This document shows positions 21,031-49,149 of a DNA stretch of 62,000 nucleotides, piece by piece. The stretch is from assembly GCF_004010195.1 (NCBI RefSeq), contig NC_057751.1, positions 8,809,611-8,871,610 on the forward strand. The letters run 5' to 3'. A program made the translations under genes and the position numbers. Positions within the stretch are counted from its first letter, which is position 1; each line of letters opens with the position of its first letter. The notes beneath the pieces were generated by a model. That model was not told the DNA's origin and made no database searches. It saw only the letters and a list, made by a program, of their open reading frames with translations. This DNA is from Chiloscyllium plagiosum. Its lineage: Eukaryota.

Positions 21031-21249
21031 GTGCTCAGAACATTTCCTCTTTAAAACAAATCAAAAAATCAGTGCTTGTGAAACTAACACCTATTACATC
21101 ACGACTAATATATTTTACAATGATATACTGTTATTCTGTGACTATTATACATTGCACTTCCTGTGCTTTTTGACAATTATTCATGGTTTTCTTCACCCAA
21201 TACTTCCATGCTTTGCTCATTTCTGAAGGCATAAGCTTTTTCTGTGGGT

Positions 21250-21328
21250 TCCTGAAGAAGGGCTTATGCCCGAAACATCAATTCTCCTATTGACCTGCTG
21301 CGCTTTTCCAGCAACACATTTTCAGCTC
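21250..21328 (+). mobile_element. Penelope-derived mini-element beginning at a hammerhead motif, flanked by a 14-bp direct repeat
   Basis: tcctgaagaagggcttatgcccgaaacatc. ctttttctgtgggt occurs at 21236-21249 and 21329-21342. Confidence 0.8.
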
Positions 21329-22664
21329 CTTTTTCTGTGGGTGCTCTGGTATCTCAAGCAAATAGACATGAAATGCTGTGGTTGAAGTGAACATTTGCAG
21401 CACGGTAAGATGTCGAAGGCACACAGCTCACTTCCAGCAAATCAACATTTCAACTGTCTTGATTTTGCCTTTCCTGTCCCAAAGTTTTGACAAATATGGT
21501 GTCCAATAGCAGCCAACACATACAGTTTTATATCAAACCTTCTCAGTCATCACATTGCTGAATCTTGAATGGTGTTGATAAGGAAGAAGATTACAATCAC
21601 AACAAGGGTACTTTACCCTGCCACTCCCCATAAGAGGTGAAGAATAGTGAACAATAAATTCTAAATACGAGCAGCTCAAAGTGAATATACACAGAGGCTG
21701 ACAATAATCATTTTTCTTTTAATAGCAGACATGTTATTCCTGAATAAGGTGACGCCACAGCTTTTCAGAATCTGCTGAGTTTGAAAGGCCACAAAATATT
21801 TCTACGATAGTTACCAACTCTAACAGGAAGTGACTCAAAGATGACATGTCTATTCTGGTATAGAAATTGGTAGCATTTGATTTTCATTGTTGAGGGACAT
21901 TTGCACTCAATAACATATGGAATAATCATGAACTGCCACTCTGAAGTTCCACATGTAGTTTTGACATCAACAACTGCCAAATATTTATATTATCAGGGAG
22001 GATTGCCAATTTATCTGCAATAATGCTAGTGTGCAGCCAATCTGAACTGGAACTAATGGTCTTGAATGAAGAGAGTAGAAAGATTTATTGACATGGACAT
22101 TTTCATTGTATTATCTTCCTGTAAGTAATATGCAAGTTCAGACCTCAGACATTTAAATGGGTTCCATGAATTCATCACAAACTGGGGACAACAATTCAAC
22201 CCTGCCTTTCCAACCATTCGGGAATAAGCTCCTTTTCTAAAATATTTCAACACCCATACAGCAGCATAATCAAACTTCCTTACAGCAGCAGCAAAATCCA
22301 CAAATCACTTCATCTACAATGACAATAACTATCTCAACAAAGCATCATCTGCTGCTGTCATGAGCAAATTTATTTTGGACTTTGAGGATCAGCAGGCAAG
22401 ATACTACAAGGAAACTTTGGGACAAGCAGAGAGAGGGGAAAACAGATGAGGTTTAAAACATGTGGTGACCATCAATATACTTCAGCATTTGGCACCAACA
22501 TGATTGTTGATCTGAAAAACACCAATGACTCTCCATTAACCAAGCAGGTAAAATTCAAAAGCATTCAGGTCTGCCAGCACCTCAAAACAACCGACCTACC
22601 TCTTAAGGATTCTGCAGCACTTGCCTGCAACAGTCACATACATCAGTATCCTACCAAGTTCTTG

Positions 22665-23697
22665 TGAGAAGGTGTTCGACAAGTTAGTAAAAGTTAGATC
22701 TAACAGGATTCAGGGAGAGCTTACCAAATGGACCCAAAATAGACTTGACAGACAATGGAGGGTTGTTATTTTGGACTGGAGGCCTGTGACCAGCAATGCT
22801 CCACAGGAACTGGTGTTGGGTCCACTGTTGTTGGTCATTTATATAAGCAGTTGAACAAAAGTTTCAGAGGCATGGTTACAAAGTTTGCAGATGACACCAA
22901 AATTAGCAGCATAGTCAACAGTCAAGAAGGTTATCTTAGATTACGATGGGATCTTGATCAACTGGGCCAATGGGCTAATAAGTGGCAGATGGATAAACGT
23001 GAGGTATTGCATTTTGATCAAATGAGCAAGGGCACGACTTGCACACTTCATAAATGGTCATGGGTAGTTTTGACAGAGAGACCCCAGGATTCAGGTACAC
23101 AAATATTTCAAAGGTGCAGCACAGATAGAAAGGGTGATGAAGGCAGCATTTAGCACGCTTGTCTTCATTGCTCAGACCAATGAGCAGAGCAGTTGGAACA
23201 TCATGTTGTACCACATGCTGGTAAAGCCACTTTTGGAGTACTGTGTACATTTCTGGCCAGCTAGGATGTAACTGGGCCTGGAAGATTTTAGTAAAAAGAA
23301 GAGGTTTTGATCTGCTGATCTTTTTGGACTGGAGGAGTTTCAGGGGTGACCTTATTGAGATTTATAAAATCACGAGGGGGCAGAGATAAGGTGAACAACA
23401 AAGGTCTTTTCCCTGGGGCAGAGGAACTTTTAAACAATAGAGAGCATTTCTTTTTAAATGTGAGAGGATGAAGTTTTAATAGGGGCAACGTTTTCACACA
23501 AAGGGTCGCATCCATGTGGAATGAACTGCCACAGGACGTGGGAGATGCATCCAAAAGACATTTGGATAGATACACAAATAGGAAGGACTGAGAATGATAT
23601 GGGCCAAATACAGTTAAGTGGAGCTAGTTTATTTTGGGAAACTTGGTTGACATGGATGAAATGGAGTCTGTTTCCGTGCTGTATGATTCTATGACTA
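22665..23697 (+). mobile_element. CR1 LINE, 5'-truncated
   Basis: PQELVLGPLL, KFADDTKI, LRLRWDLDQLGQWANKWQM and a (ctatga)-type 3' terminus. Confidence 0.92.
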
Positions 23698-25503
23698 CAT
23701 TTCTGGCAGCCATCACCATCTATCTGCCCCCTCAAATTTCTTTTGGAATGATGCCATTAAAAGAAACACAGTAGTTGGCACTTAATGGCAAATCCCAGTA
23801 CATCTCAACTTCCTTTCTTGCAATGAATTTAGATATTAACTTGAGTGAGTTCACAATGGAAACCATCACTGACAGATTGTGATTCCTACCAAACTAAAAT
23901 CTGACGGCGCTGGGTTGGTGGGGTAGTGTTAGGTTCTTTTACTCTTGAGATTCTTACACACTTGATGCAATTGCAACACACCAACCTCTGTGAACAAGTA
24001 ACCAAATTTATTAAGCACAATACAATACAAGCTTTCTGGAGAAACCTTTAATACACACCTTGCAGAGCTTACGGGGTCGTGGCCAAAGTTCTTACTGAAG
24101 AAAACGGTCTTTCCTTTACACAAAGCTCTCAACATCACAGTACTGCCCACAAGACATCCCTCAGCCATCCCCTCATAGTCACATGCCACTCAAGATACAA
24201 TGCAGTGACCACCCCATCTCCAGAAACAATGTAATGCAAATCACCCCTTAATGGTAAAATCTGTTGCAAATTGTCTTTTTTTTAAAATAAGTACAGGGGA
24301 GTAATCAAATTCCAAGTGAAATGTTCTTGTTGTTTTCTGGATAAAAATGTAACCATCCCTGAATGGCAAGTAAATGGCCATGTAAACCTCCCACATACCA
24401 CCTATAAACCAAAGACACGCCATCTTACCCCCAGGGCATTCAATTTCATACAGGTCAGTACAGCAAATTAACTCTTTAATATCTCAGTTGCTTTCACTCG
24501 CCAAAAACTCATCAATAACTTCTAAAATATCAGCCCAATGGCACAGCTGATGAATAAGCGAACTAATGTAGTTTGCAAGTCAAAGATCCTGTCAACAACC
24601 ATGAGTTTGATCTAAGGTCAGAGATGCTCAATGACACAAAAATCTCAGGCTTGGTTAAGACAATGTAGAATAAGACATGAGACTGGACTCAAACACCAGG
24701 GTGCCCAGTCCTTACAGCAACCCAGCCACCGATCAGTCCTGTCACCTTCTTTTAAAGTACAGAACTGAGTTTGCCCAAAATGCTTTTTGACTGATACAGC
24801 AGCCAACATAATGCTCCAAACACCACTGCTCTCTTGTGCCTGGATATATCAAAAACTACTTGAGTTCTTCCTAGAGGGGATGAGCAACGTTAAACTGTTT
24901 TTCACGCAAGGTTGGCACCTCTGATCCAATGTGAAAAAAATGGTTTGTCTTTCTGACAGCTGCTCACACATCATCAAGGAATAGGATGTGATATGTGGGA
25001 AGATGAGAGCTGAGTAATAATTGCATGAGTGGGAGAGTGCAAGAGGCATTAAACATTCAGCATTCACTGGGCTATGTTCAAATTCTGGAGAACCATCTGT
25101 CCAATCAGCCCATGCTACCACTTCACTTAATTCCAATGTTGCCACTTAATTACAACAGGGGAAGCGACCTCATTCATGTGAATATGCTTTCAAGCTCTGC
25201 CATATGGATTGCTGGTATAATGCTTGGAACCGGTTATCACCCTGTACGTCAAACATCTGTTCACGATCACCTCACTGAGAAAGTGTTTAAGGTATGAGCA
25301 GGTAGGGAAAGAGTTAAGTTTAGGGCTGCTTGACAAAGGCTCAGCTAGCAAGACTTTGACTGGATAAGAACTTGCAGCAAACAGTGAGGTGCTGGAGGCA
25401 AGGGTAGTGGTTTAATGAGGTGAAGAACATCAGTTGTATAATGCCACATGGCTTAATCTTTACTGTTAATGCTCGCTGATTGTAATGGTCACCAATCAAT
25501 ACA

Positions 25504-25697
25504 GATGTTAAAAATCACAACACCAGGTTAAAGTCCAACAGGTTTAATTGGAAGCACTAGCTTTCGGAGCACTGTTCCTTCATCAGGTGGTTCAGCGCTC
25601 CAAAAGTTAGTGCTTCCAATTAAACCTGTTGGGAAGATAACCTGGTTTTAAGTGATTTTTAACTTGATACACGCCAGTCCAACACCGACACCTCCAT
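25504..25697. mobile_element. Palindromic Penelope-derived mini-element, second hammerhead family
   Basis: Inverted arms gttaaaaatcac..ccaacaggtttaattggaagcac / gtgcttccaattaaacctgttgg..gtgatttttaac. Direct repeat atcaataca at 25495-25503 and 25698-25706. Confidence 0.8.
25555..25589 (-). ncRNA. Minimal hammerhead ribozyme motif (near-intact), sense to the host pre-mRNA
   Basis: CAC-CUGAUGA-A-GGAACAGUGCUCC-GAAAG-CUA-GUG: stem I CAC/GUG, palindromic AGCU stem III, NUH = CUA, one mismatch in stem II. Confidence 0.7.
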
Positions 25698-26099
25698 ATC
25701 AATACAATGTAGCCGTATTTGGATGCTGCCCGCTGCGATTCCTTAATAATCTGCTGTTCGAGAGAAGACCATGAACTCACGCTTTTGTGTACATGGGAGA
25801 TCTTGCTCTTTTCATGGCTTGAATATATGGTAAAGAAGGTAGAGCCATACTGTGTCTGAGTGTTTACTTCAACTAATACAGAAACGAGCTGACATCACTT
25901 CAAACTCAAATCCTCACTCAAGACACAGGCCAAAACCAGTGCTTTATTGTAAAGGATGTCGGTTGTTGGATACTTCACTTTTTTTGCCCAACACTAATGG
26001 CCAGAGTAATTTGGTAGGATCATTTCAGAGGGCTGCTTACAGTCAAATACAATGAAAACTTGTCAAGTGACATGTCAGTCACTGTAGAACAGGACAGAA

Positions 26100-26275
26100 G
26101 ATTTCCATCTCAAATTGACATGAGATATGCTTTTGTGACAAATGACAAGAGATTAACAATCACAATTACTGAAATGAGCTTTTATTGATTGAATTCTATG
26201 GTGGGATTTGAACCAGTGTGCTCAGAGCATAAACTCAAGTCTCTGGATGATTGGTCCAATGGTATTACCACAAAG
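26100..26275 (-). mobile_element. Decayed tRNA-derived SINE head
   Basis: ggtgggatttgaacc is the reverse complement of the B-box ggttcaaatcccacc. Confidence 0.5.
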
Positions 26276-26519
26276 CCATGATAATCCTAGAACTTACAAT
26301 TCTATTCTCACATGTTAAAATAAAAATGATTTTGTGCAGATTTAAATGCCCATTTTAATTTACAGTTGCAGTTCAACAATGGAAATTGCTCACTTCAAAC
26401 GAAGCAAAAACCCAGATGGAGCCAAATTTGCAAAGAGGCAAGAGTAGGATAGTACTCTCAGGATGTTTGTGGTGAGAGGTGAGAAACAAAAGCTTTGGAC
26501 CATTTCACTAGTGGTGCAA

Positions 26520-28020
26520 GCCACTATTTAAGAAAGGGGGTAAGGAAAAGCCAGGGAACTATAGACCGATGAGCCGAACATCCGTGGTGAACAAATTATT
26601 GGAGGGAATCCTGAGGGACAGGATTTACATGCATCTGGAAAGGCAATGACTGACTGGAGACAGTAAACATGGCTGTGTGGGGGAAATCCTGTCTCACTAA
26701 CTTGATTGAGTTTTGTGGACAAGTGACAAAGAGGGCAGAGCAGGGCGTGTGATCTACATGGATTTCAGTACGGCGTTCAACAAGGTTCCTCATGGTACAA
26801 AGGTTCGCAAGGTTAGATCACATGGAATACAGTCATGACTAGCCATTTGAATACAGAACTGGCTCGAAGGTAGAAGATAGACGGTGATGATGGAGGGTTG
26901 CCTTTTCCTCTGGAGTCCTGTAATCAGTGGTGTGTCACAAGGATTGGTGCTGGGTCCACTGTTTCTTGTCATTTGTATGAATGATTTGGATATGAACACA
27001 GCAGGTATAATTACCAAGATTGCAGATGACACCAAAATTAGACGTGTTGAGAACAGCAAAAAAGGTTATCTCAGAGTACAACGGGATCTTGATCAGATGG
27101 GCCAAGGGCTGAGGACTATGTTACGACATGTGGTAAACCCTCCTGCTTAATTTAAAAACCAGCAAAACAGAAACGATTTATCCCGTGCAGTAATTTTGTA
27201 AAAATCAAGTGGACAAAAGCTATTTAAAGGAAAAAATAACTTTACTTCTTAAAGTATAACAGAGAAAAATTAATTAACCACTATTTAGAATTTCTTTCTC
27301 TACCCTATCTTTTAGCTTCACTTCTCTAATACTAGCCCAATAAAACTCCCAATTAAGATTTAAAAAATAACGCTTAGCTCAAATCCAAGCACCGATAGGT
27401 TCTTGTCTTTGAATCTTCCTGTGTTTTCTTTTCTCCTTGTTAGGAATTTCTGCATTACAGGTTACTGGTCGAAATGGTACTTTTTAAAAAGCGATATTTT
27501 TTCAAGCAGTCTACATGCTCGGTTTGGCAGTTCGCATCTCAACTGTTCAATTTTCCCCGGTCTTATACTCCAGAGCATCGCATTGTGTCATTGGTTTTTA
27601 AGATTGTCAATATACTCAATTCAATCTTGATTGGAGTTTGCTATACTTCGGGTGCAATTTAAACTGATTGGCCGAATTAGAATTTGTTTTTGTCTCCAAG
27701 CAACGAACTAATCGAGTGGTTCGACTCCCCCATTGTTTCATTGTTGGCATTTTTAAATACACTTGGTGCTGGGTCCAGTAGTTCTGCTGCTTTTAACTCT
27801 CAAAAGGTATGCCCACATCCTCATAACAAGTAGCAGATGGGAGTTTAATTTAGATAAATGTGGGGTGCTGCATTTTGGAAAAGCAAATCAGGGCTGGACT
27901 GATGCACTTTAGTACTGAGGCCTGGGAAGTGTAGCTGAACAAAGAGACCTTGGAGTGCAGGTTCATCGCTCCTTGAAAGTGGAGTCACAGGTAGATAGGA
28001 TCATGAAGGCGACATTTGGA
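26520..28020 (+). mobile_element. CR1 LINE split by a solo LTR (CR1 parts ~26520-27118 and 27829-~28020)
   Basis: PGNYRP, GVSQGLVLGPLFLVICMNDLD, KIADDTKI. The sequence resumes colinearly (gggctgagg|agtagcagatgg) after the insert. Confidence 0.9.
27119..27828. mobile_element. Solo LTR (710 bp) nested in CR1
   Basis: tgttacga...tcataaca termini (7/8 inverted), 4-bp flanks acta/agta (one mismatch), and precise interruption of a CR1. Confidence 0.85.
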
Positions 28021-28204
28021 TCCCCTCCAGCAGCCAAACTCCTAATTCTAGCAACAGCAACCCATTCAGCACAAACTGGGAAACATATCTGAGACACACT
28101 GCAAGGTTGAAAGATTAAATTGGAATATCTCTTTGGACATTGATATAATGTTAAAGAGTTAAACTGCACTGAGACAACATTCTGGATGTTGGTAGGGAAG
28201 ACAT

Positions 28205-28714
28205 TGATGCAGGAATGCGAATCACCCACACCCCAATTAGACAGTCATTTGCTACTGCTCTCCTGGTATTATCAACTTAAACTATTAAATCTCCTCCATT
28301 CAGAAATGCTTTCTGGCCATCCCCTTAAACAAGGAATGTTGAACCTGTATTGAATCAGAGTCAGGAAATTGTCTCATAACGATTCCCCAGGATAAGGACA
28401 TGAGCATTTGCATGATCTCCAAGGATGGTCTTGTCCAAACATTGTACCTGGCGTAACGTGACTGGGGGTTGTCTTCACAGGCATGTGACAATGGGGGAGC
28501 GGCCAGAGGATCTCCAAGCATGGCCAACTAACCTATATAAAGGGGATTTGTTTTTTTGTTCAATGGTTCACTTTGATTCGACTTCGTGCGCCTGCAAAGA
28601 GGGACATTGAGGGTCACCGAGCTTGTACAAGCTTTAACAAACTTAAACCTTTTGCAGAAATTGGTGTGTGCAAATTGCATCTCATGTGCGAAACCTCAGC
28701 AAAAGAACATAACA
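28205..28714 (+). mobile_element. Probable solo LTR
   Basis: TG...taaCA ends, flanks acat/acac, internal TATA box (cctatataaa ~28532), CpG retained. Confidence 0.5.
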
Positions 28715-29401
28715 ACACTGGTTTGTGCATTTATAACTCGTTTGTCTTTACTAATTTAGCTGTTGGGAAAACATCCAGCAACTTCCATTATCTTCACCAT
28801 TCTGGCTGGGATTCAGGTAAATATTAGGACCAACAAGCAAAGGAAATAGGAGCAGGAGGCGCCATTTGGCCTATAAAGACGACTTTATAATTCAACTGTA
28901 TCTTGCTTATGATACAGATGATGTACCAACAACATAATAAACAGCTACTGTGCTTTAATGTCTTACAAAATATTTGTGTCTTCAATATACTCAAAGAGAA
29001 CCTCCAAGGCCTCTGGGGTAGAGACGTTTCAGCATTCAGCACACCCCAATTGCCAAAATTGTACCTCATCTTAGTCCTTAAGGACCTATCATTTATTCTT
29101 GAGACTTGCTTCGTTGCCAGTATGACCAAGCATTCAAAACTGAAGGGCAACATTGGCCACTTGAAATTTCATAAAAGTGTTACTTTCTTGCATGACTCAC
29201 AGCACAGAGTTGGCATCAAGACTTAAGCACAAAATCTAAACACAATAATTTCCTGCAGAAAACTTCATCATTAAGATGATGACAAGTTGAGGTTGCAAAC
29301 CCCTCAAACCTCAGTTTGAGGCCAGTGACTTAAAGTCAAAACTTGACTTGAGAGCAGCACCAAACATAATATGAAAACAACAGCTCCAATTTAATCCCAA
29401 A

Positions 29402-30645
29402 AGGTGCTGGATGTAGGTTTGCTCGCTGAGCTGGAAGGTTCGTTTTCAAATGTTTCGTCACCATACTAGGTAACATCTTTAGTGAGCCTCCAGATGAAGC
29501 ACCGGCGGTGAAACCCACTTTCTATTTCTATGTTTGAGTTTCCTTGGGTTGGTGAGGTCATTCCCTATGGTAACGTCATTTCCTATGATGATGTCATTTC
29601 CAGTTCTTTTTCTCTGTGTGGAAAATGGGATCCAAGTCAACGTGTTCGTTGATAGCATTCCTGTTGGAACGCCATGCTTCTAGGAATTCTTATGCGAGTC
29701 TCTGTTTGGCTTGTCCTAGGATAATGTGTTGTTAGCAAGTTTTGAGAAGATTTGTAGCTTAGGTTGAGGTTCTGGATGCAGGTTTGTTCGCTGAGCTGAC
29801 GTCCTTTTCAGACATTTCATCACCCTACTCGGTAACATCTTCAGGGAGCCTCCAGACTAAGCACGGCTGATGATTCCTGCTTTCTATTTATACGTTTGGG
29901 TTTCTTTGGGTTGGTAATGTCATTTCCTGTGATTTTGTCATTTCTTATGGTGATATCATTTCCTGTTCTTTTTCTCAGGGCACGGTAAATCGGGTCCAAG
30001 TCAATGTGTTCTGGTTGGAACTCGTATGTTCATGGCATGCCAGACTACTCAAACCCCTTGGCATAATGGTAGCCCACAAACCCACCAACACACGAAAAGA
30101 GCAGCAAATGAACTTGAAAGACCCTATACAGGCAACATGCAAAACTAATGTCATCTACAAAATACTTTGCAAGAATTGCAACTAACACTACATTGGACAA
30201 ACATTGGGAAACTAGCCACCAGGATACATGAACATCAACTAGCCACAGAACGACATGACCCACTCTCACTCATATCCTTACATATGAATGAGGGAGGACA
30301 CCACTTCGACTGGGACATCACATCCATCCTCGGACAAGCCAAACAGAAACATGCACAAGAACTCCGAGAAGCATGGCATTCCAACCAGAATTCTGTCACC
30401 AAACACACCGACTTGGATCCCATTTACCACCCTCTTAGAAATATGACAAAAAATGACATCACCAACCCAAGGAAACACAAACATAGAAACAGAAAGCGGG
30501 CGACACCACCAGTGCTTCATTCGTAGGCTCACTGAAGGCGTTACATAGCATGGTGACGAAATGTCTGAAAACAAAACTTCCAGCTCAGCGAGCAAACCTA
30601 CATCCAGAACCTCAACCTGAGCTACAAATCTTCTCAAAACTCGTG
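29402..30645. mobile_element. Penelope-like retroelement: two tandem inverted 3' copies (-, ~29402-29730 and ~29735-30020) followed by a forward GIY-YIG/pLTR segment (+, ~30021-30645)
   Basis: Forward frame reads KTNVIYKILCKNCN*HYIGQTLGKLATRIHEHQLA...HHFDWD...EAWHS (GIY-YIG endonuclease). Its 3' end is repeated twice in reverse upstream, and each copy has a hammerhead motif. Confidence 0.9.
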
Positions 30646-31619
30646 AATTCGAAAAGGATTTGAGGTTTCAATGCCCTTCTTTTACAGAACTGCATTCATA
30701 GCCACATTTATATACAAGCTTAAAGTACAATGCAGTCCTCTTACTGCCACATGGCTATTAAGGATACAAAGACTACACATGCAAGAATGCAGGAGTCGTC
30801 TCTTTAGACTAAGTGGAGACATACAAATCTCATTTATGTAAACATCAAGAACTGACTTTCTTATAGTGTGGCAAAATGTGCGCAAAGTAAGGATGCCAAA
30901 TTCCAAATCCAACACATGCAATGTACTCTTGACCCTTAACATGATCACGAGGTGCAGATCCCTTCAGGGAACAACTCTCACAAGGCACCTATGAACATCA
31001 GACAGCTGAGGAATTAAGAACTCGATAAAGAAATTTGTCACCAACCTTGCCATCTGATTTCCAAGTGGCGTCAGAGCTAAAATACCAATTTTAGCTTTCT
31101 CAACATTTAGAAACATACAAGGCCATATCTGTGTTGAAGTAGTTGTGGGCTGGACATACTGTTCACCACATCAAATAAAATCCAAGATGCAAGCCAACAT
31201 TCTTGATACAAAGCAATGATCCTTCACTCCAGTGGGTGCACATTTAAATTCACAGGTATTGGGTTCTGAACCTTGCAACTCAAGAATGTTGTTCATTTAC
31301 AATAAAGACCTTCCATTTCAAATTCCCTTAAGGAGGGAAAGAATGTACATGGGAAAGCTAGCTAAAAACATAAGAACAGTTTTATTCAGAGTTTCTTAGT
31401 ATTAAGCAAGATATTATGATACTTTGAAAAGAGGAGTTAATAAGTTGAGGATTTGAGTCCTGTTGACTGCAAATATGGTGATTCGAGAAAACAGGACAGA
31501 CAAACAGAGGCTCCAACTAACACCCAAGAAACCACACAGCATGAATGGAATATTAATGATGTGCACAAAGTAAATTGCATCTCTTTTAAGGTTGAAGTGC
31601 CCTATAAGTGCCTTTTACA

Positions 31620-31780
31620 GACTCTCAAACTCAACATTTGCCTGTACCTTGGTTTTTGTTTTTGCTGCTATTTACATATAATTTACTTATCTATGTACTT
31701 AACAAGGTGATCTGCCTGTATTGCTCGCAAGCTTTTCACTATGCCTCGGTACACGTAACAATAAATTCAATAGAATTCAA
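31620..31780 (+). mobile_element. Rex1/Babar-type LINE 3' UTR fragment
   Basis: Matches 41010-41143 (gactctcaaa...gtgatctgcctgtatt...ggtacac..acaataaatt). Confidence 0.65.
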
Positions 31781-34353: not shown

Positions 34354-35420
34354 TTAAGACCACAAGGGATCAGAACAGAACTTAGGTTTTCTCAACCCCA
34401 TTCTCCTACTTTCTCTGCATAATCCTTGATCCTCTTAATACTCAAAAACCTAATCGATCACAGTCTTAAATATACTCAATGACCTGGCCTCCACAGCCTT
34501 CTGTGGCAGTGAATTCCATAATTTCACCACTCTGGCTGAAGATGTTTCTCCTTATCGCCATTACAAAAGGTTTTCCCTTTACTCTCAGGCTATGCCCTCT
34601 TAGAGTCTCTTCCCAAAATTCACTTTCTCCAGGCCATTCATTATTTTGTATGTTTGAATTAGGTCCCACCTCATCCTTCTCAACTCCATCAAGTGTCGAC
34701 CCAGAGTCCTAAAAAGTTCCTCATATGTTAGGCTTTTCATTCTTAGGACCATTCTTGTGAACCTCCTTTGAGCACGCTCCAGGGCCAGGACACCCTTTCT
34801 GAGATATGGAGCCCAAAACTGCACACAATATTCCAAATGTGACCTGACCACAGAGCCTAAAACGCCCTCAGAAGTACATCCCTGCTTTTAGTTTGAAGTC
34901 TTTTCAAAATAAATGTCATCATTGTATTTGCCTTCGTAACTACTGACTCAACTTGAGAAAATCCTGGACGAGAACTCCCAAGTCTCTTTGCATTTCAGAC
35001 TTCTAAATTTTCTCCCCATTTAGAAAATAGTCCATGCCTCTATTCTTCCTACTGAGTGGCATGATCTCACACTTTCCCATGTTGTGCTCCATCTCCCCCT
35101 TCTTTGCCCACTCTCCTAACCTGTCCAAAGCTTTCTACAACCTCTCTGTCTCCTCAAGGCTACATGTTCCTCTACCTATCTTTGCATCCACAACGCCGAA
35201 GTGTTGGTGTTGGACTGGGGTGTACAAAGTTAAAAAAAAAATCACAATACCAGATTATAGTCCAACAGGTTTATTTGGAAGTACTAGCTTTCAGAGAGCT
35301 CCTTCATCAGCTTCAGGAGCAGCACTGCTAAAACTAGTACTTCAAAAAAATTTGTTGTTGTGTGATTTTTAACTTTATCTTTGTATCATCTGCAAACTTA
35401 CCCAGAATGCCCTCAGTTTC
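34354..35420 (-). mobile_element. CR1 LINE, interrupted at ~35199-35378
   Basis: VRSHLEYCVQFWAPYLRKGVLALERAQRRFTRM. KFADDTK resumes after the insert. Confidence 0.9.
35199..35378. mobile_element. Palindromic Penelope-derived mini-element (same family as 25504-25697) nested in CR1
   Basis: aaagttaaaa..atcaca / tgtgatttttaacttt arms. ctagctttc..gctccttcatcag is the reverse of the CTGATGA..GAAAGCTAG motif. Confidence 0.75.
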
Positions 35421-37103: not shown

Positions 37104-37671
37104 GTTAAAAATCACATGACACAAGGTTATGGTCCAACAGGTTTAATTGGAAGCACTGGCTTTCGGAGTGCTGCTCCTTCAGGTGGTTGTGCAGTACACA
37201 ATTGTAAGACACAGAATTTAGAGCAAAAGTTTACAGTGTGATGTAACTGAAATTTTATATTGAAAAAGACCTGGATTGTTTGTTAAGTCTCTCATCTTTT
37301 AGAACGGGCCACGTTAGCTTCACTTCTTTCATTTGTAAATCGCAAAACTTTTTTTTTAAAAAGTTACATTCTCAGATGAACTTTAACAATGGATGTCAGC
37401 CCAGGTAATGTGCTGAAGGTGTTCGCCCCCTGTGTGCTGCTGTCTGTGCCACAATGTTTAGACTGACTGTAACCTGAAAAAATGAATTGACAGAACCTTA
37501 CATGGATTCATGCAGTTTTGGAGCAAAGTACAATGTAACTCAGCAAGTACAAATTCACCCCACAAACGTGTGTGAGGGTGCGCGTGCGTGTGTAAATGTG
37601 CGCAGTTGAGTGTGTCTGGGAGAGTGTATATGTGCATGTGTTAAAGGGGTCTAAGTCAGTGAGAGGGTGCA

Positions 37672-37734
<63 letters not shown>

Positions 37735-37760: not shown

Positions 37761-38349
37761 ATCATATACAGCCAGTGATACACATGGGAATCTTATGGAA
37801 ATCCTGCTGGACGTACTTCTGAACTTCCCATGGGCATCCCCTGCTCTTCGAACCCTCTGTCCAAGTCCAGAATTTGTAGACAACTTTTCTCGATCAACTT
37901 GAACAGTTAGAAGTTAAAAACGTCTGGCTAATTGCAAAACTGATCTCTCAATCACTTAAACTGATCCCCTCTCACCTACAAAACTGACCTTGCAATGGCT
38001 CATGCCTCCCCACCATACCTGACCCGCCTCAAACTCCCAACTAGCCAATTTGTTTGCTCTGATCCACTCTCTGGAACATTCATTGACATTCGTACTGAAA
38101 GTGTACACTTGCCAGACAGCAATTCATACATGCAAACAGGCACATCTTGTCTTTTGAGTTGTGGTTGAAACATGTTTGCCAGGATGCAATTGGTGACGAG
38201 GGATTAGATTGCTGGGCTTGGGGTGAAGATATTTCAAACTTGACTGGCCTCAGGTGAAGTGCCAGATCACTGGAGGACAGCTAATGAGGTTCCTTTGTTC
38301 AATAAAAACAGCAAGATATTTACACAGTTATTCTGACATGGTTGGGACA

Positions 38350-39525: not shown

Positions 39526-39534
39526 AAGCCCAAG

Positions 39535-40250
39535 GTGGACAAGCACATGGCTGGAAGAACAGAGCAAGCCAGGCAGCATCAAGAGGTGGAGAAGTCAACG
39601 TTTCAGTGGAACCCTTCTTCAGGACTGGGGGTGGCTGCAAGGGGAGCTGCAGATAAAGGGCATGGGGGCAGGGCGGTAAGGTGAGGATAGGTGAGCACAG
39701 TTGAGGGTCCGACCTGGTTGGTCGATGGGAGGAATAAATCCAGTTGGTAGCTGGAAGGAAAGGTTGAACAGAGGAATAGAATGGAGAGGGAAGGGTTGGG
39801 AAGGGAGGTTATTTGCAATTGGAAAATTCAACGTTCAGTCCTCTGGGCTGCTGGCTGCACAGGCGGAGGAGGTGGTGTTCCTCCATTTTGCCATCTGATC
39901 CATTGTGGCAATGGAGGCAGCCAAGGATGGTCATGTCGGAAAGAGAGTGGAAAGGGAAATTAAAACAGGCGGTGACCAGCAGACCAGGTCGGTCCATGTG
40001 GGCCCGCCTGAGATGCTCAGTGTAGTGTTCCCTTAGTTTACGTTTGGTCTCCTCCATGTGGAGGTGACCACATTGGGAGCACCTGATGTTGTAAACTAGA
40101 TTGGAGGAGAGACAGGACTGTTTGGGGCCTTGGGAGGTGGTGAATGGAGCAATGTGCTGGCAGGTTTTGCATCTTTGCCAGTTGTAGAGAAAGATACCTT
40201 GCCAGAGTTGGTGCAAGTGTTTAAGGATGATGCATTAGATGTGGAGACCG
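39535..40250 (-). mobile_element. Penelope-like element, inverted GIY-YIG + pLTR copy
   Basis: ORF 39809-40216: RCKTC..., SSNLVYNIRCSQCG..ETKRKLREH..EHLR...FN...H...E...PRGLN (Cys-linker plus GIY-YIG). Hammerhead motif at 39594-39625. Confidence 0.88.
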
Positions 40251-40890
40251 GTTGGAGTCCCTTGTCCTCAACTACCACCCCACCAGTCTCCACCACATCA
40301 TAAGACCCCACCATCAAGACCATCAACCCCTCTCCACCCATCTCAGCCTTCTGCAAGGACCATTCTTTTTGCCAAATTGTGGATCGTGCCACTCCCCCAA
40401 TAACTACCCTGTACCCCCAGGTACTTTCCCCTGCAACCGGCAAACATTCACCTGCCTCTCCTCCAATGTAGTTTACTATATCCAGTGTTCCCCACCTGGT
40501 CTTCGTAGAACACAGAACAGTACAGCACAGTACAGGCACTTCGGCCCTTGAAGTTGTACCTTTTATCCTAATATCAGATCCGATTAACCTACATACCCTT
40601 CATTGTATCCAGTGCCCTACCCAAGACTCGCTTAAATATCCATAATGTATTTGACTCTACTCACATTGCTGGCAGTGCATTCCATATTTCCACCACTCTA
40701 AACCTTCCTTCAAGTACCTGAAAGTTAAGACCCTCATGATAGAAATTTTCATCATGGGAAAAAGGCTTTGCCGATCCACTCTATCTATGCCTCTCAACAT
40801 CTCGTACACCTCTATCAAGTCACCTCTCATCCTTCTTCGCTCCAATGAGAAAAGCCTTAACTCCCTCAACCAATGTTCTCAAAGATTCAT

Positions 40891-41143
40891 TCCACCCTGG
40901 CAATGCTTTACTACAACCTCTCCCATTGGGGAGAAGGTACAGAAGCCTGAACATATGCACAAGCTGGTTTCATAACAGTTTCTACCCTACTGTTATTAGA
41001 ATACTGAATGGACTCTCAAATCCTTAGCATTCATCTGTACCTGTGTTTTTTGTTTTTGCCACTGTTTACTGATTATTTACTTATCAATGCTACTTAACTG
41101 GGTGATCTGCCTGTATTTCACTGTGCCTTGGTACACATGACAA
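40891..41143 (+). mobile_element. Rex1/Babar-type LINE 3' end nested in CR1
   Basis: LQPLPLGRRYRSLNICTSWFHNSFYPTVIRILN resembles the Rex1 ORF C-terminus (LPSGRRYRS...RF.NSFYP..IRLLN). AATAAA near the end. Confidence 0.7.
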
Positions 41144-41869
41144 TAAATTTACTTCAATTCAACTCCATCTGCCACTTATTAACCCAGTTCTGCATCCTGT
41201 CAATGCCCTGTTGCAACCTGCAACAGCCGTCCACACTATCCTCAACTCCACCAACTTTGATATCATCAGCAAACTTACCTCATCCCCTTCCTTATCCAAG
41301 TTATTCATAAAAATCACAAAGAGCAGAAGTCCCAGAACCAATTCCTGTGGAACACCAGGCTCCAAATCGAATACTTTCCATCAACCTCCACTTTCTGTCT
41401 TGTTTTGGGCCAGCCAATTCTGTATCCAGACAGCCAGATTTCCCTGCATTCCATGCCTCCTTACTTTCTGAATGAGCCTTCCATGGGGAACCTTATCAAA
41501 TGCCTTGCTAAAATCCACATACACCACATCCATTGCTCTATGTTCAATGTGTTTCAGCCTGTCCTCAAAGAATGCTGACTATCTCTAATCAAACTATGAT
41601 GCTCCAAGTAATCATAAATACTGCATGTCAGGGTCATCTCCACTAATTTGCCCACCACTGACTACTCTAATTCCCTTTCTTAACCAAGGGAATAACATTT
41701 ACCACCCTCCAACCATCTGGCACTACTTCAGTGGACAGTGAGGACGCAAAGACCATGGCCAGAGGTGCAGAAATCTCTTCCTTCACTTCCTGTAGTAACC
41801 GAGGGAACATCCTGTCTGGCCACTCTAATCTTTGCCTCCACAACCTGAAGCAAACTTTGTTTGCCTCTT

Positions 41870-41987
41870 GGAGAAAGTAAGGACTGCAGATGCTGGGGAT
41901 CAGAGCTTAATGCCCGAAACTTCGATTCTCCTTCTCCTTTGATGCTGCCTGACCTGCTGCGCTTTTCCAGCAACACATTTTTAAGCT
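41870..41987. mobile_element. Penelope-derived mini-element nested in CR1 (inverted tail + partial hammerhead)
   Basis: ggagaaagtaaggactgcagatgctgg (reverse tail) joined to tgcccgaaacttcgattctcc...gatgctgcctgacctgctgcgc. Confidence 0.75.
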
Positions 41988-43811
41988 TCCTTTTCCTCTT
42001 GACTAGATGTCCCACATGTCATCATCCAAGGTTCTTTCAACCGGTCATCCCTTTCTTGCTTCAGTGGAACAAATCTGGCCAGCATTATCAGCAAGTGTAT
42101 TCTGAACAACCTTCATATTTCTGTCATCCATTGCCCTGAGAACATCTGTTTGAATTGATGCACCCCACTTCCTGCCGAACAGCATTGTAATTCTCCTTTC
42201 CTCAATTAAATACTTACGCATACCAACTGCTCCTATCCCTCGCCACAAGAAAAGTGAGGGTCAGAGAATTGTTATCACTATGACCAAAATGCTCTCCCCC
42301 ACCATGAGATCTGACACTTGGCATGTATCATTTCCAAGCAACAAATCCAATATGTCCTCCCCTCTAATTGGCCTAACGACATATTGAGCCAGGAACCCTT
42401 CCTTGGCACACCTGTCAAAAACTACTGTACCCAAACTATTTGAACTAAAGGAGATTAGTTCAATCAATCAATATTAGGCAAGTTCAAGTCATGCATGACA
42501 ACAACCCTGCTACTTCTGTGCCTTTCCAAAATCTGCCTCCCAATCTGCACCTCAGTGTTTCTGTTGCTATCGGGGGCTCGAGAGAAAACTCCAATCAAGT
42601 GACTGCTCCTTTGCTGTTTCTATCTTCCTCCCATACTGGCTCTGCGAACAAAACCTCCTCAAAGACCTCCCTTTCTGCAGCCGTGATACCATCCTTCATT
42701 ATCAATGCCATCCTCCACCTCTTTCACCTCCCGCCCCATTCCTTTTGAGCAACTGAACCCTGGAACATCCAACAACCATCTTCTCTACATTGGGGAGACC
42801 AAATGTAAACTAAGGAAATGTTTTGCCACAGGGGCCAACCTGACCTCCCAACACCACTTATTTTAATTCTCCTTCTCTCTCCCTTTCTGACATAACCATC
42901 CTTGGCCTCCTCCATTACCACAATGAAGCAGACTGCAAATTGGAGAAACAACATCTCATCTTCTGCCTGGGCAGCCTGCAGCCCAAAGGACTCAACACTG
43001 AGACCTCCAATTTCAAATAACCCCCACTTCCTCACCCTTCCCCTCCATTCCATTCCTCTGTTCGCCCCTCCCTTCCAGCCACCAACCGGATTCATTCCTC
43101 CCATAGACCAACCAGGTCATACCCTCTACCCATATTCACTTAACCCCACCTCACCACCCTGCCTCCCCTAATCTGTTTATCAGCAGCTTCCCTTACACTC
43201 ACCCCCAGTCCTGAAGAAGGGTGACACTGAAAACATTGACATCTCCACCTCCTGATGCTGCCAGGTTTCCTGTGTTCTTCCAGCCTTCTGCTCGACTACC
43301 TTGGATTCCCGGATCTGCAGTTTTTTTTTGTCTCATGATAATCCCAAGGGCCTGTTTCAATGTCAAAAGACTAACTGTAAATGGGCAGCCACGGTAAAGT
43401 TGCAGTGAGGTGCTGTAATAGTGATTGGGGTCTAACTTATTTTCAACAGACGCTGGTTGACGTTAGTGTTTCCAAGTTTTGCTGGCCTTCTACCTACTTC
43501 TATTTGTCAGCTAATAATACAGCTGGTCATCCACATCCCTTTCTGCAAAGAATGGCAAACTTTGGAAAAATGGCATTGGAACACTGATTCAATATGTGCT
43601 TCAAGAAGCTGCTAAAATCATGTGGCAAAACTCTATGACACCAGTAAAACCAGCAACTTCTCATCACATGCACAATTGCAGCACTTGCTGATTGCCTCTT
43701 GCAATGTTCCCTCATAACACCTCTGCTACTTTTTGACAATTGCCATCAATTGATGGCTTTCATTTAGCCATTCTTCCAACTAGTGGAAACAATTCCTCCA
43801 AGTTACCACAA

Positions 43812-44460
43812 AACCATAAGCAATACAAACACAGGGTGGCTGTTGAGCCCCGAGAGCCTGCACACATAGCTCATATTCATTTCCCTGTCTTTTGCCCCAA
43901 AGTCTTGATTCCCCTCCTGGTCAAAAACGTACCAAGTTCAGCCTTAAATGCACACGAGGATATGACCTCCACAACTTTTTGTCAGCAAGGTCTGACAACT
44001 GTCTCCCAAGAAATCCATCATCTCAAACTTAAATTTGCAGCCTTTTATTCTGAGATTAAGCCCCCATTGTCCTTGACTCTCAGGACTAAGCACTAAGACG
44101 GTCAAGCCTCTTCAGATTTTTGTGATTTTCCATGAAATCACTTCTCAATCTTTGAAAATCCAGCGTGTATAATCCCAACCTGTTTTGCCTTTGTTCCTCA
44201 GACACTCCAACCAACCACATGAACCTTCGCTGAACTGCCTTCCATAAAACTGTATCTTTCTTTAAAGAGAGGGGACCAAAACTGTCCACAGGACTCACCA
44301 TGTGGTTTCCCCAACCTCTTGCATAACTGTAGTCAGATTTCCCTGCTGACAGTCCAATCCCCTTGAAATAACAGTCAGCATTCCATCTGCCTTCCAGTTT
44401 ACCTGCTGCTCCTGTACGCTGCCTTTATGTTTTGTATAAAAGTCCCCTTTAGCGCTTCAG
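43812..44460 (-). mobile_element. Old CR1 3' fragment
   Basis: KAVQRRFMWL...NRLGLYTLDFQRLRSDF. Confidence 0.75.
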
Positions 44461-44934
44461 TCTTCTATCCTTTTGTTGGCCCTGCCACCAAGAGGTTCTC
44501 GTTTTCCCTTTCAAGTTATCGCAATCCCACTCCATCATAAAACAGAGATATGACTCATGGTGAAATTAAGCTATAGGTTCCCATCAAGTGACTGTCAAGG
44601 TTGAGACATGCATGGTAACTTCAGTTGACCCATGATACTCGTGTTACTCTGTACTGCAATCCAGCCATCCACTTAACTGAGCTACTCCATCAAAGCAACC
44701 ATGAATCTGCAATTGATACAATCACTTGCTTGTTTGCTCATCAACTGATAGGATGGGCATATATCAAGTCTTTAGAGAATCAATATGCAGCAGTGTAGAC
44801 CAAAATTCGTTTCATGTCTTTCTTCTTTCTCTTCGTATTTCTTTAACACTCACCAGCCACTTGAATTAGAAGTTCAGCTTCTATTTTGAGAAGCAGCTTG
44901 GAAATACCCTGTGAAGATCAGCCAAGAAAAACAC

Positions 44935-45470
44935 AACACAGGAACAGGCCCTTCAATGCACCAGATCTGCAATGACACATGATATCTTTCCAAACTGAAA
45001 GCCTTTTGCCTCCACACAGTCCATATTACTCTGTACCAGGTCTATTAATCTGTTAAGATGCTTCATACATGTTAGTATTCTGTCTGCTTGTACCAACTTC
45101 TCAGTCAACCCTTTCAGGCACTAGCACCACCTACAAATTTTGCCTCTCACATCGCCATTAAAAAAAACTTACCCCCTCTTGCCCTAAACCTACGTCACCC
45201 ATTGACATTTCTCCCCTGGGATAAAGAATCGACCTACCCATTCTATCCAGGCCTCTTAAGATTTTGTAAAACTTGATTGTGTTGCCCCTCAGCCTCCAAC
45301 ATTCAAGTACAAACATGATCTGAAGGTGCCAGTGTTGGCAAGTTTATTTGAAATCACAAGCTTTCAAAGCACTGTTCTTTTATCAAGTGAAAACAGCACT
45401 AATAGCCAATCTCTCCACATAGCTAATACATTCCAAAACCAAGCCACATCATAGTAAGTATGCGCTGTAC
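44935..45470 (-). mobile_element. Decayed CR1 3' fragment with a small Penelope-type insert (~45318-45392)
   Basis: 3' UTR similarity to 40505-40870. The insert resembles the 35199-35378 family. Confidence 0.6.
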
Positions 45471-45649
45471 TTCACCAAAACTACTACTGTTGTCCCGTTC
45501 CCCCCATCCCACCTCGGTCGAAGCAAAACCTCCTTCATCTTTATTCCGGGCCCTGGAGGGAGAGAGAACAATTGCCTCTGTGCAGAGAAACATGGGTTCC
45601 CGGTCTTTTCTGGAAAAGCAGTTTCTTAATGAATTACATAGTCATTTTA

Positions 45650-47822
45650 CAGGGAATGCCATCCAGATAAAGCACGAAAGAGAGAAGGCAAAATCGAATG
45701 TCATTGTGTTACAGTTAAATAAAGATTACAGGGCACGAGAGAGGAACTGACAAAAATTGACCGGAATCAGACCCTAGTGGGGAAGACAGCAGAGCAACAA
45801 TGGCAGGAGTTTCTAGGCGTAACTGAGGACACAGTACAGAAGTTCATCCCAAAGAAAAGACAGATGATTATGCAGAAAGTGGGGGAGGGGGGTATTAGAC
45901 AGCATGGCTGACAAAGGAAGTCAGGAAATGTATCAAAGAAAAAGAGACAGCCGATAAAGGGGCCAAGAGAACTGGGAAATTAGAAGATTGGGAAGGCTAC
46001 AAAAATAAACAGAGAATAACAGAGAGAAATAAGGAAAGAGAGGATCAAATATGAAGGTAGCCTAGCCAGTAATATTAGAAATTCTAGTAAAAGTTACTTT
46101 CAATACACAAGAAACAAATGAGAGGCAAAAGTAGACAGTGGGCCACTCCAAATTGATGCTCAAAGGCTAGTGATGGAAGATAAGGAAATAGCTGAAGAAC
46201 TAATGAAGTACTTTCCGTCAGTCTTCACAGTGGAAGACATGAGTAATATCCCAACAATTAAACAGAGTCGGGGACAGAGTTGAGTATGATAGCCATTACA
46301 AACAGGAAGTGCTACAAGAGCTCAAAGGTCTAAAAATTGATAAATCTCCTGGCTCTGGTGAGCTACATCCTAGAGTTCTGAGGGAGGTGCCTGAAGAAAT
46401 AGCAGAGGCGTTGGCTGTGATCTTTTAAAAAAAAATCACTGGAGTCAGGCAAAGTCCCAGATGATTGGGAAAAAAATTGCTGTTTTAACCCCCTTGTTCG
46501 AGAAAGGATCAAGACAAAAATTGGAAAATTATAGGCCGATTAGCCTAACCCCGGTTATTGGTGAAATTCTAGAATCCATCGTTAAAGTTGGGATTTCTAA
46601 ATTCTTGGAAGTGCAGGGTTGGATTAGAACAAGCCAGTGTGAATTTAGTAAGAGGAGGTCATGCCTGACAAACTTGTTATTTATCTCGACTTCCAAAAAA
46701 GTGCCTCATGGGAGGCTGCTGAGTAAGGTGAGGGACCCGTGGTGTTCAAGGTGAGGTAGTGGCATGGATTGAAGATTGACTGTCTAACAGAAGGCAGACA
46801 GTTGGGATGAAAGGTTCTTTTTCGGAATGGCAGCCGGTGACAAGTGGTGTCCCACAGGGTTCAGTGTTGGGGCCGCAGCTGTTCACTTTATACATTAGTG
46901 ATCTGGATGAAGGGACTGGGGGCATTCTGGCTACGTTTGTCGATGAGATTAAGTCAGGTGGACAGACAGGTAGTAGTGAGGAGATGGGGAGGCTGCAGAA
47001 AGATTGAGACTGTTTAGGAGAGTGGTCTAGGAAATAGCTGATGAAATTCAATGGGAGCAAATGCGAGGTTTTGAACTCTGGAAAAAAGAATATAAGCATG
47101 GACCATTTTCTAGAAGGTGAGAAAATTCAAGAAGCCGAAGTACACAAGGATCTGGGAGTGAGAGTCCAGGATTCTCTCAAGGTTGACTTGCAGGTTGAAT
47201 CCGTGATTAAGAAAGCAAATGTAATGTCATTTATCTCAAGAGGATTGGGATATAGATGCAGCAATGTGCTTCTGGAGACTTTATAAAGCTCTAGTTAGGC
47301 CCCATTTGGAATGTTCTGTCCAATTTTGGGCCCACACCTCAGGAAGGACATACTGACACTGCAGTGTGTCCAGTGGAGATTCACATGGACAATCCCTGGA
47401 ATGGTCGGCCTAATACATGATGAGCAGCTGAGGATCCTGGGATTGTATTCCAATTTAGAAGGATGAGGAACGATCAGATAGAAACTTACAAGATAACGCA
47501 TGGCCGAGAAAGGGTGGACTCTGGGAAGTTGTTTACATTCGGCATTGAGAGTAGGACCCATGGGCACAGCCTTAGAATTAGAGGGAGTCCATTTGAAACA
47601 GAAATTAGGAGATATTTCTTCAGCCACAGAGTGGCAGGCCTGTGGAACTCACTGCCACGGAACGCTGAATGCCTTCAAGGCAGAGGTTGACAATTCCTTG
47701 TGAGATCCAGAATTTAAGTGCAATGGGGAGAGTGCGGTAAGTGGGGCTGAAATGCCCGTCAGCCATTATTAAATGGCAAAGTGGACTCGATGGGCCGAAT
47801 GGCCTTACTACCACTCCTATAT
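45650..47822 (+). mobile_element. CR1 LINE, longest continuous copy (~2.2 kb of ORF2 + 3' UTR), disrupted by stops and frameshifts
   Basis: KSPG, LENYRPISLT, SCLTNLL, GVPQGSVLGPQLFTLYISDLD, DLGVRV, FFSHRVAGLWNSLP. Confidence 0.95.
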
Positions 47823-47886
47823 CTAACATCCATCTTGACTGTAATGGTCACCCAATCAGCGAGCATCAACAGTAAAGATTAAGCCA

Positions 47887-47978
47887 TCTGATGAAGGGCT
47901 TTTGCCCGAAACGCCGATTTTCCTGCTCCTCAGATGCTGCCTGACCTGTAGTGCTTTTCCAGCACTACTCTGATCTAA
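47887..47978 (+). mobile_element. Penelope-derived mini-element starting at a hammerhead motif
   Basis: CTGATGA-A-GGGC-TTTT-GCCC-GAAAC-GCC (cleavage triplet mutated from GTC), followed by the shared tail. Confidence 0.8.
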
Positions 47979-48259
47979 AAACTGTTGTTATACAATGAAC
48001 GTTCTGAACCTTAACTGGTTTCACAGCATGAACATGTTTCACCTTTTTAACTGACCTTACATGTTTAAAGCTTGCAATATTGTTAAATGTCCTTCTGTAA
48101 TGAATGTTTTTCCACCTTGTTAACCCATTACCCTTGCCTCCAGCACCCCACTGTTAACTGCAAGTTCTTAACTAATCCGAGTCGTGCTCAGCTGAACCTC
48201 TTCCTTCACAAAACTCAAAAAACTCTACTCTTTCCCTCAAGTCTGTACCGGCCCAATAC

Positions 48260-48725
48260 ACGTTCTCACTACATCCTTATGGCAGAACTACACACAATAT
48301 TCCAAACATGGTCTACTTCAACTTTTATGCAGCTCCAATGTGACTGGTGAATTGTTATACCCGATGCCCCAAAAATTAAAGGCAAGCATGCCAATCGTCT
48401 TCTTGACCACCTTATCCACTTGTGCTACCACCTGCATGGAACAGTGGACCGACACACCTGCATCCTCGAGATGATGAATGCTTCTAAAGGTTCTGCCATT
48501 TACAATGTACTTCCCTCCTGCATTAAGTCTTCAAAAACGCATCACCCCACATTTGGCTAGATCAAATCTCATCTGCCATATCTCTGGCCAAGTTTCCAAC
48601 ACACTTTCCAGCAATCCTTCTCACTATTCACAGCTAGCCCAACTTTTGTCTTGTCCACAAACTTACTACTCAGAACAACTACATTCTCCTCCAAATCCTT
48701 CACAGGTGAAAAACAACAGGGGCCC
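48260..48725 (-). mobile_element. Decayed CR1 fragment
   Basis: Reverse-strand similarity to the RT C-terminal region of other CR1 copies. Confidence 0.65.
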
Positions 48726-48916
48726 CAAATCTCCAGCGAGCTTACTCCACTAAAGAAGGGCTTTGTCGTTCATCAGAGTTCAGTTGACACTTGTCATCCA
48801 GTGTGTAATTAGAAAATGGGTGACATCACTTTTCTGGGCAAAACTAGCCAGGCTCACATGTGAACAAACGAAGTGTTACCATCAGCCTACACTGATAGTC
48901 AGCAAGATGATCTCAG

Positions 48917-49149
48917 AGTTGAAACTTTATTGCTGGAACAGCACAGCAGGTCAGGCAGCATCCAGGGAACAGGAGATTCGACGTTTCGGGCACAGGCCCT
49001 TCTTTTTCTGGGCAAAACTTCCTGAAGAAGGGCCTGTGCCCGAAACGTCGAATCTCCTGTTCCCTGGATGCTGCCTGACCTGCTGTGCTGTTCCAGCAAT
49101 AAAGTTTCAACTTTGATCTGCAGCATCTGAAGACCTCACTTTCTCCTCG
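48917..49149. mobile_element. Young palindromic Penelope-derived insertion: perfect 88-bp inverted arms (48917-49004 / 49025-49112), 20-bp spacer, 14-bp flanking direct repeat
   Basis: Arms are identical with all CpGs intact. aagatgatctcaga occurs at 48904-48917 and 49150-49163. Confidence 0.92.
49019..49052 (+). ncRNA. Intact minimal hammerhead ribozyme motif (type I, dimer-type)
   Basis: UUC-CUGAAGA-A-GGGC-CUGU-GCCC-GAAAC-GUC-GAA. Predicted cleavage after C49049. Confidence 0.8.

Follow-up and report, generated by a model that had tools for sequence, protein, structure and literature searches.

We analysed a repeat-rich stretch of 62,000 nucleotides from the bamboo shark Chiloscyllium plagiosum (NC_057751.1, positions 8,809,611 to 8,871,610; G000:C42:8809611-8871610), hereafter the window, taken from an assembly of 3.56 Gb, with a focus on its hammerhead ribozyme motifs. 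These motifs are real minimal hammerheads of the class published for Penelope-like elements (PLEs), mostly in decayed copies, and all four families present derive from the pseudo-long terminal repeats (pLTRs) of endonuclease-containing (EN+) PLEs. The short copies that carry them are probably stubs, left when reverse transcriptase (RT) copied uncut RNA from internal start sites to the RNA 5′ end. Because the class has already been published, the finding itself is ordinary; what is new is this genome, the high count and a modest mechanistic clue.

The motifs were searched for with a pairing-aware descriptor, which demands the core boxes together with stem pairing and was judged against shuffled sequence. 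In a genome sample of 140 evenly spaced 10-kb stretches (1.337 Mb without N; L-numbers below denote loci of this sample), it returned 77 matches, compared with 0, 0, 0, 3 and 1 in five shuffles. The window itself gave three matches (49022+, 25586- and a chance-like one at 11708-); 200 shuffles of it averaged 0.025 and never gave more than 1. An earlier reading of the window, made from its letters alone and called here the sequence-only reading, had proposed such a descriptor search. A covariance-model scan of the window with Rfam returned no hammerhead family among 9 matches at E up to 10. Two window fold-backs matched Rfam microRNA hairpins weakly, below threshold.

Two features noted from the letters, a loopless stem III and one extra base behind A9, recur together in 75 of the 77 descriptor matches of the sample, and the extra base alone in 76. 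This base, between A9 and G10.1, is A in families a, b and d and U in family c (13 of 14 c copies). The majority palindrome at 15.2-16.2 reads CG in a and c and GC in b, while family d is represented by only two sampled copies, both CpG-decayed. The 4-bp palindrome duplex is predicted to be weak (-1.7 and -2.5 kcal/mol), and monomer and two-copy folding gave no active dimer with a program that cannot represent that dimer. Membership of the published minimal-hammerhead class is upheld by the features given in the cited part of PMC4209133 for metazoan PLE pLTRs, which are shared here: a type-I fold without loop 3, the palindromic 15.2-16.2, the extra base after A9 and the G10.1-C11.1 pair. As there, the genome harbours several consensus families that differ by compensatory changes, and the motifs are mostly single and scattered, with some opposite-strand pairs close together. 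The stems of families a, b and d are shorter here than there.

Genome-wide, exact family patterns occur 63,676 (a), 13,901 (b), 1,783 (c) and 196 (d) times, with no hit in the reversed controls, and a generic core pattern that demands no pairing occurs 208,481 times in the 3.56 Gb, compared with 781 in the reversed control. Extrapolation from the sample (about 205,000) agrees with this figure, and strand counts are even. The very large genome-wide population suspected from the window is therefore confirmed. The cited part of PMC4209133 counts about 9,000 minimal hammerheads in Xenopus tropicalis and about 4,000 in coelacanth, against about 208,000 here, and the present total also exceeds the 126,247 type-I hammerheads given for axolotl in the cited part of PMC7229834, which are another motif type found by another search; such comparisons are rough because searches and descriptors differ. 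No shark is named in the cited part of PMC4209133, although tables there or in 10.64898/2026.07.22.740005 may list shark counts, and in the only paper found to contain Penelope, shark and hammerhead ribozyme, 'shark' denotes the shape of the motif.

Derivation from PLEs, likewise proposed by the sequence-only reading, holds for all families. Endonuclease remnants lie upstream of family a, c and d motifs at many loci, and tblastn places endonuclease upstream of family b at two (L122, E 4.6e-7; L015, E 1.6e-6). RT linkage was examined for family a, where a frame in L189 matches RVT_1 above cut-off (E 6.5e-8) and a GIY-YIG match in L185 falls just under it (E 2e-4); families b, c and d are linked through their endonuclease remnants. 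A tandem copy in L214, a junction found through protein search only, runs from a pLTR motif at 2140 through the tail to an ATG-led PLE-like N-terminus, with the first in-frame ATG about 165 nt behind the core, and on to a second motif at about 5796. A CX2-5CxxC linker between RT and endonuclease, given as a feature of Neptune and Nematis in the cited part of PMC8557442, was read in family a, a CxxC is present in the family d remnant of the window, and none was seen in b. By this linker families a and d, with b uncertain, may be Neptune/Nematis-like, a tentative assignment that does not separate the two clades. Family c shows no linker in its window remnant and places an AUG, a possible start of an open reading frame (ORF), across A9-U-G10.1; it may tentatively be placed with Penelope/Poseidon. 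In family b (L051:3709-5970 and L044:1461-3150), the endonuclease end and the motif are about 600 nt apart, and the non-coding interval contains a CA-rich microsatellite.

The letters of stems I and II vary between families, as had been read, and yet pair, with one exception. Stem I had been said always to pair, which fails at its third pair: this is U-U in 19 of 21 a1 and 20 of 28 a3 sampled copies, and it is properly paired in a2 (7/7), b (32/38), c (13/14) and d (2/2), with U-A in a2 where d has G-C. Nor are the four families all separate, since a and d share 73% identity across motif and tail and are therefore not independent. Conversely, six sample loci (L082, L087, L101, L124, L156 and L049) carry extra variants in which the 3′ strand of stem I reads AAC, AGC or AAA and stem II is longer, so that the genome holds more than four families.

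Compensatory change, which had been expected of the stems, was found in family c. The set comprised 16 copies (15 distinct; 14 from the sample and 2 from the window), picked by core boxes and stem II length with no pairing filter. Among the 15 distinct rows, the outer stem I pair is G-C in 7, C-G in 4 and U-A in 3, and one stem II pair is C-G in 8, U-A in 4 and U-G in 3. The covariation score of 0.254 was matched by none of 500 shuffles, and slid structures reached at most 0.105. The stems covary between subfamilies. These data support selection on the hammerhead fold in active lineages, and they are silent on inserted copies.

Within the window, remnants were traced by BLAST with family sequences. 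All 12 sites at which the sequence-only reading had placed hammerheads hold a recognisable remnant of the family assigned to them, but only two, 49022+ and 25586-, pass the full descriptor. CUGANGA is broken at 14874, 37183, 30532 and 29482, and stem I or III is broken, or the NUH absent, at 21252, 47888, 35310 and 29844. At 39622 stem II is reduced to 2 bp; at 43211 it has collapsed, and an extra A stands behind GAAA. The earlier count of more than a dozen motifs holds if remnants (41911+, 45339- and the inverted arms) are included and not otherwise. The features are as follows.

14871..14901, + strand: family a (a3) motif with a 3-nt core deletion; longer copy including upstream pLTR sequence
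21249..21282, + strand: decayed family a (a1) motif in which neither stem III nor the first stem I pair is intact; stub end at about 21326; 13-bp duplication on both sides
25555..25589, - strand: family b minimal hammerhead, descriptor-passing, 3-bp stem II; fold-back arm
25593..25663, + strand: inverted family b arm, facing 25555-25589
29446..29485, - strand: family c motif with its core disrupted by a G5-to-A change; forms a head-to-tail pair, of period 362 nt, with 29808-29847
29808..29847, - strand: decayed family c motif in which neither the first stem I pair nor the palindrome is intact; opposite in orientation to the motif at 30529
30040..30526, + strand: broken GIY-YIG endonuclease remnant 5′ of the motif at 30529, putatively of Penelope/Poseidon type, in which no CxxC linker was detected; left boundary approximate
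30529..30568, + strand: family c motif with its core disrupted by an A9-to-G change; the tail extends downstream as far as about 30640
35282..35313, - strand: family b motif, decayed, stem I broken and stem II shortened; inverted arm at 35318-35350
37155..37186, - strand: family b motif with a 3-nt core deletion and without U16.1; longer copy including upstream TATA-region sequence
39594..39625, - strand: family d motif with a stem II of only 2 bp; the core and both other stems are intact
39809..40234, - strand: CxxC-bearing endonuclease remnant that lies 189 nt upstream of the motif at 39594..39625
41911..41984, + strand: family a stub, not cited earlier; family match begins within stem II
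42853..43017, + strand: endonuclease remnant, 193 nt upstream of the family d motif at 43208..43240
43208..43240, + strand: family d motif, decayed, extra A and collapsed stem II
45339..45389, - strand: old family b remnant, not cited earlier
47885..47918, + strand: family a (a3) motif, decayed, U16.1 and stem I gone; stub to about 47975
48904..48917, + strand: 14-bp target-site duplication, left copy (sequence reading)
48913..49004, - strand: inverted short arm, 99% complementary to 49025-49116; begins within CUGAAGA and lacks the tail
49005..49019, + strand: junction filler of 15 nt, identical to flanking DNA at 48831-48845
49019..49052, + strand: family a (a2) minimal hammerhead, intact; long arm of the fold-back, with the tail running to about 49149
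49150..49163, + strand: 14-bp target-site duplication, right copy (sequence reading)

Pfam detected no PLE domain in eight window fragments, the remnant at 30040..30526 among them. The filler at 49005-49019 is an exact 15-nt copy of the flank about 60 nt ahead of the target duplication; because it copies 48831-48845 exactly, it suggests a short template switch onto host DNA during insertion. At 29402-30030 two same-strand family c motifs lie 362 nt apart, both decayed, in a unit that includes an endonuclease remnant. One arm of an old fold-back at 1006-1145 resembles a tail of this superfamily, and its core is gone.

The copies across the sample share a characteristic shape. On a scale where C3 of the core is 0 and the family a cut is predicted before +28, no more than 10 nt of element precede the core in 213 of 295 sampled a and b copies, and 3′ ends fall into a short class (about +80 to +92) and a long class (about +121 to +127). 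No sequence beyond the tail is shared among 131 sampled long-ended copies. Where both arms of a fold-back reach +65, a long arm is joined to a short one in 68 of 72 cases; solo copies are long in 67 and short in 82 (binomial p 2e-16). Duplications of at least 11 nt flank 40 of the 72 fold-backs, compared with 4 of 280 random pairs. Arrays of hammerhead-bearing units in head-to-tail order, a retrozyme trait, were not found for families a and b: only 16 of 206 whole sampled a and b motifs have a same-strand partner within 1 kb and 93 sit in fold-backs, family c lying outside this count, so that few genomic copies could cut in cis. Both cited window sites that pass the descriptor likewise sit inside inverted repeats, which are predicted to fold into long hairpins (-206 and -97 kcal/mol) with the motif taken up in them. 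With the other 10 cited copies broken, a reading of these copies as a population of working ribozymes is not supported; the scattered copies appear to be by-products with no expected ribozyme role.

The 5′ ends were counted in copies that reach +65 and begin at or before +50. They concentrate at -10 to +2, in 95 of 212 family a and 35 of 83 family b copies, which is 21-fold and 13-fold over the rate at -89 to -11. The cut site shows no such excess (7/212 for family a at +26 to +31, about 5 expected, p 0.23; 1/83 for b; 0/22 for c). Genome-wide, 23,715 exact a1 copies reach -3 and 9,122 reach -8, and long copies agree with those five a1 positions at 82-100%; the -4 edge is also a top loose end in two other sequencing runs, with diverse flanks. 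A BBCA+1BW initiator, a consensus taken from the cited part of PMC5287114, stands at -4 in a1/a2 and d and at -8 in b, and a TATAAAT (b) or [CT]TTATCT (a, d) box mostly lies 30-33 nt before the initiator A (mostly 31 in a1/a2, 33 in a3, 30-32 in b and 30-31 in d). In family c TATAAAT lies at -47 to -53, so that its predicted start is further upstream (about -15 to -20), and the copies mostly keep that region, with at least 50 nt upstream of the core. A promoter in the pLTR, with an intron 46 bp after the start, is known from Penelope of Drosophila virilis (cited part of PMC2377424).

Three candidate signals at these edges were rejected. A family c 5′-end peak at +42 (69/89 at +32 to +50) came from a reference copy joined to an unrelated repeat, a family c edge at -2 with its -1 initiator was an artefact of upstream subfamily differences, and a spliced leader at the -4 edge was discarded because the flanks differ copy by copy. 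Separately, several contigs of run X15 rejoin the ORF 5′ sequence of L214 (2295-2522) to L214:2120-2140, as if copying had jumped at the -4 edge onto another template; these are single contigs with weak support.

We propose that the stubs are pLTR minimal hammerheads left by RT copying of uncut RNA up to its 5′ end, which we consider the probable course of events. An RNA polymerase II promoter in the pLTR, composed of a TATA or AT-rich box and an initiator, would start the RNA about 4 nt (a, d) or about 8 nt (b) before the core. A protein dimer would then initiate copying from both DNA strands once they are nicked, using a different one of two internal start sites on each. Where copying begins in the first tail copy of the RNA and runs off the 5′ end, stubs of 85-135 nt would result, and head-to-head fold-backs where both strands are primed. 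Selection would keep the fold in active master lineages, where cutting is probably slow and confined to RNAs with a partner RNA or the element's protein, and the scattered genomic copies would be by-products of insertion. In the literature, cleavage by PLE hammerheads is described as weak and helped by a dimer or by protein. For an anole PLE, in vitro work in the cited part of PMC11167929 reports internal priming at two sites, to which the tail is mapped, extension of both strands, a preference for uncut RNA and a ribozyme that needs protein. The stub ends constrain both the role of the PLE hammerhead and the origin of inverted insertions, pointing to uncut templates, a start at the motif edge and two-strand priming.

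Several observations weigh against this proposal. Head-to-head junctions have been explained by self-priming on an antisense template (cited part of PMC3846280). RNA reads show no pile-up of begins or ends and cover both strands of a family a stretch, in a poly(A) single-cell library that is unsuited to starts and whose species label may differ. The AT-box words were picked with knowledge of the sequences, TTTATCT is weak as a TATA box, and a3 has TTTATT at -4, which fails BBCABW. A cap-derived extra G before ATTC was not found (C 12, T 5, A 5, G 1). In family c the 5′ ends form no edge at the motif, and short copies are too scarce for a check of the predicted start; family d is represented by very few copies. 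As to the selected fold, two of the four covariation measures (pair and type counts) are no better than shuffles (387 and 327 of 500), and the remaining ones are inflated by relatedness among the copies. Finally, the -4 edge of family a coincides with the end of the 4-bp stem I, so that a structural stop is also possible, and the 5′-end cluster is broad and reaches into the core (33/212 at +3 to +15).

The last two points favour an explanation in which RNA structure sets the stub edge, RT stalling or switching template past a folded or protein-bound hammerhead while the RNA starts further upstream. That protein may bind near the hammerhead is indicated because the anole motif cuts only with the element's protein (cited part of PMC11167929). 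Against a structural stop, the family b edge at -8 lies five bases past a 3-bp stem I, at an initiator 30-32 nt after TATAAAT, and family c, which has the same fold, mostly retains at least 50 nt upstream. We regard it as unlikely.

More improbable still is a self-propagating non-autonomous family, similar to short interspersed elements or retrozymes, whose members would be self-transcribed, cut by dimeric hammerheads and reinserted. The minimal sequence before the core in most a and b copies and the very high copy counts would fit it, as would the PLE-derived tandem retrozymes with a mean of 363 bp in one chondrichthyan (cited part of 10.64898/2026.07.22.740005), compared with the 362-nt period of the family c pair in the window. 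However, the stubs span the cut site rather than beginning there, are not preceded by the predicted promoter box and correspond to the ends of coding elements; their edges and junctions vary copy by copy, same-strand neighbours are few, and the family c pair includes an endonuclease remnant, as a partial tandem would. The short copies thus look like dead insertion stubs, and the term non-autonomous, applied to much of the population by the earlier reading, is apt in the sense of non-coding and not in that of self-propagating.

That the host keeps the copies as working ribozymes or RNA-folding signals in introns is scarcely credible: the core does deviate less than the downstream sequence in a1 (3/289 vs 35/1418), a3 (3/250 vs 53/1182) and b (23/557 vs 191/2894), but a2 is reversed (2/80 vs 1/408), the test is biased, as copies entered it only if they aligned across the core and the downstream sequence includes differences between subfamilies, CpG sites in the motif decay at up to 36%, most window copies are broken and strand counts are even genome-wide.

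Building on RT copying of uncut RNA, we tentatively raise one further possibility, itself rather doubtful, for what the ribozyme does. If the pLTR promoter puts the hammerhead within the first 4-8 bases of the mRNA, a single RT-endonuclease dimer that holds two RNAs could prime both target strands, one at each start site, and the same RNA-RNA pairing would form the palindromic stem III. In that case the ribozyme would act as a switch, thrown by dimerization, that takes the cap (in family c, the start codon) off RNAs, and the RNAs left uncut would be the ones inserted. Were this true, the long-unexplained PLE hammerhead would gain a specific job, and some 200,000 stubs would record the PLE insertion cycle.

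Among known systems, the EN+ PLE insertion units described in the cited parts of PMC3846280 and PMC8557442 consist of a 5′-truncated copy, an inverted pLTR, a one-sided tail of 30-40 bp and a target-site duplication. The copies here share with them the head-to-head inverted copy, the single-end tail, the target duplication, partial tandems and TATA/initiator-like motifs in the pLTR, and differ in being mostly 85-260 bp long, in a one-tail rule that has been counted (68/72) and in 5′ ends that cluster at the predicted start. With PAc, the Poseidon element of Anolis carolinensis (cited part of PMC11167929), they share two 3′-end classes resembling its two internal priming sites, a putative uncut RNA template and, in family c, an AUG at the start of stem II, given by the extra U (13/14), like the ORF start of PAc; they differ in the extra A of families a, b and d and in the tandem ATG of family a about 165 nt behind the core. 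Our side of the comparison with PAc, including the uncut template, and with the hammerheads of PMC4209133 is drawn from sequence. The non-LTR animal retrozymes treated in the cited parts of PMC7229834 and 10.64898/2026.07.22.740005 are likewise of type I, very high in copy number, PLE-related and present in one chondrichthyan, whereas they consist of 170-400-nt units arrayed head to tail, carry largely canonical motifs and have circular RNAs, and the copies here are mostly solo or head-to-head stubs with minimal motifs.

The remainder of the window contains stretches that we take, from translated words, to be CR1/L2-like fragments of long interspersed elements (8913-9689, 22552-23756, 46395-47126, 57643-58500 and others), two of which gave no match in Pfam. 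On the minus strand, 5332-5724 and about 9950-10000 presumably represent two exons of the gene for a regulatory subunit, B55, of PP2A (PPP2R2 family; the name comes from the peptide). Short peptide words turned up no further upstream exon of this gene in the window. The motifs lie upstream of both exons, probably in a long intron.

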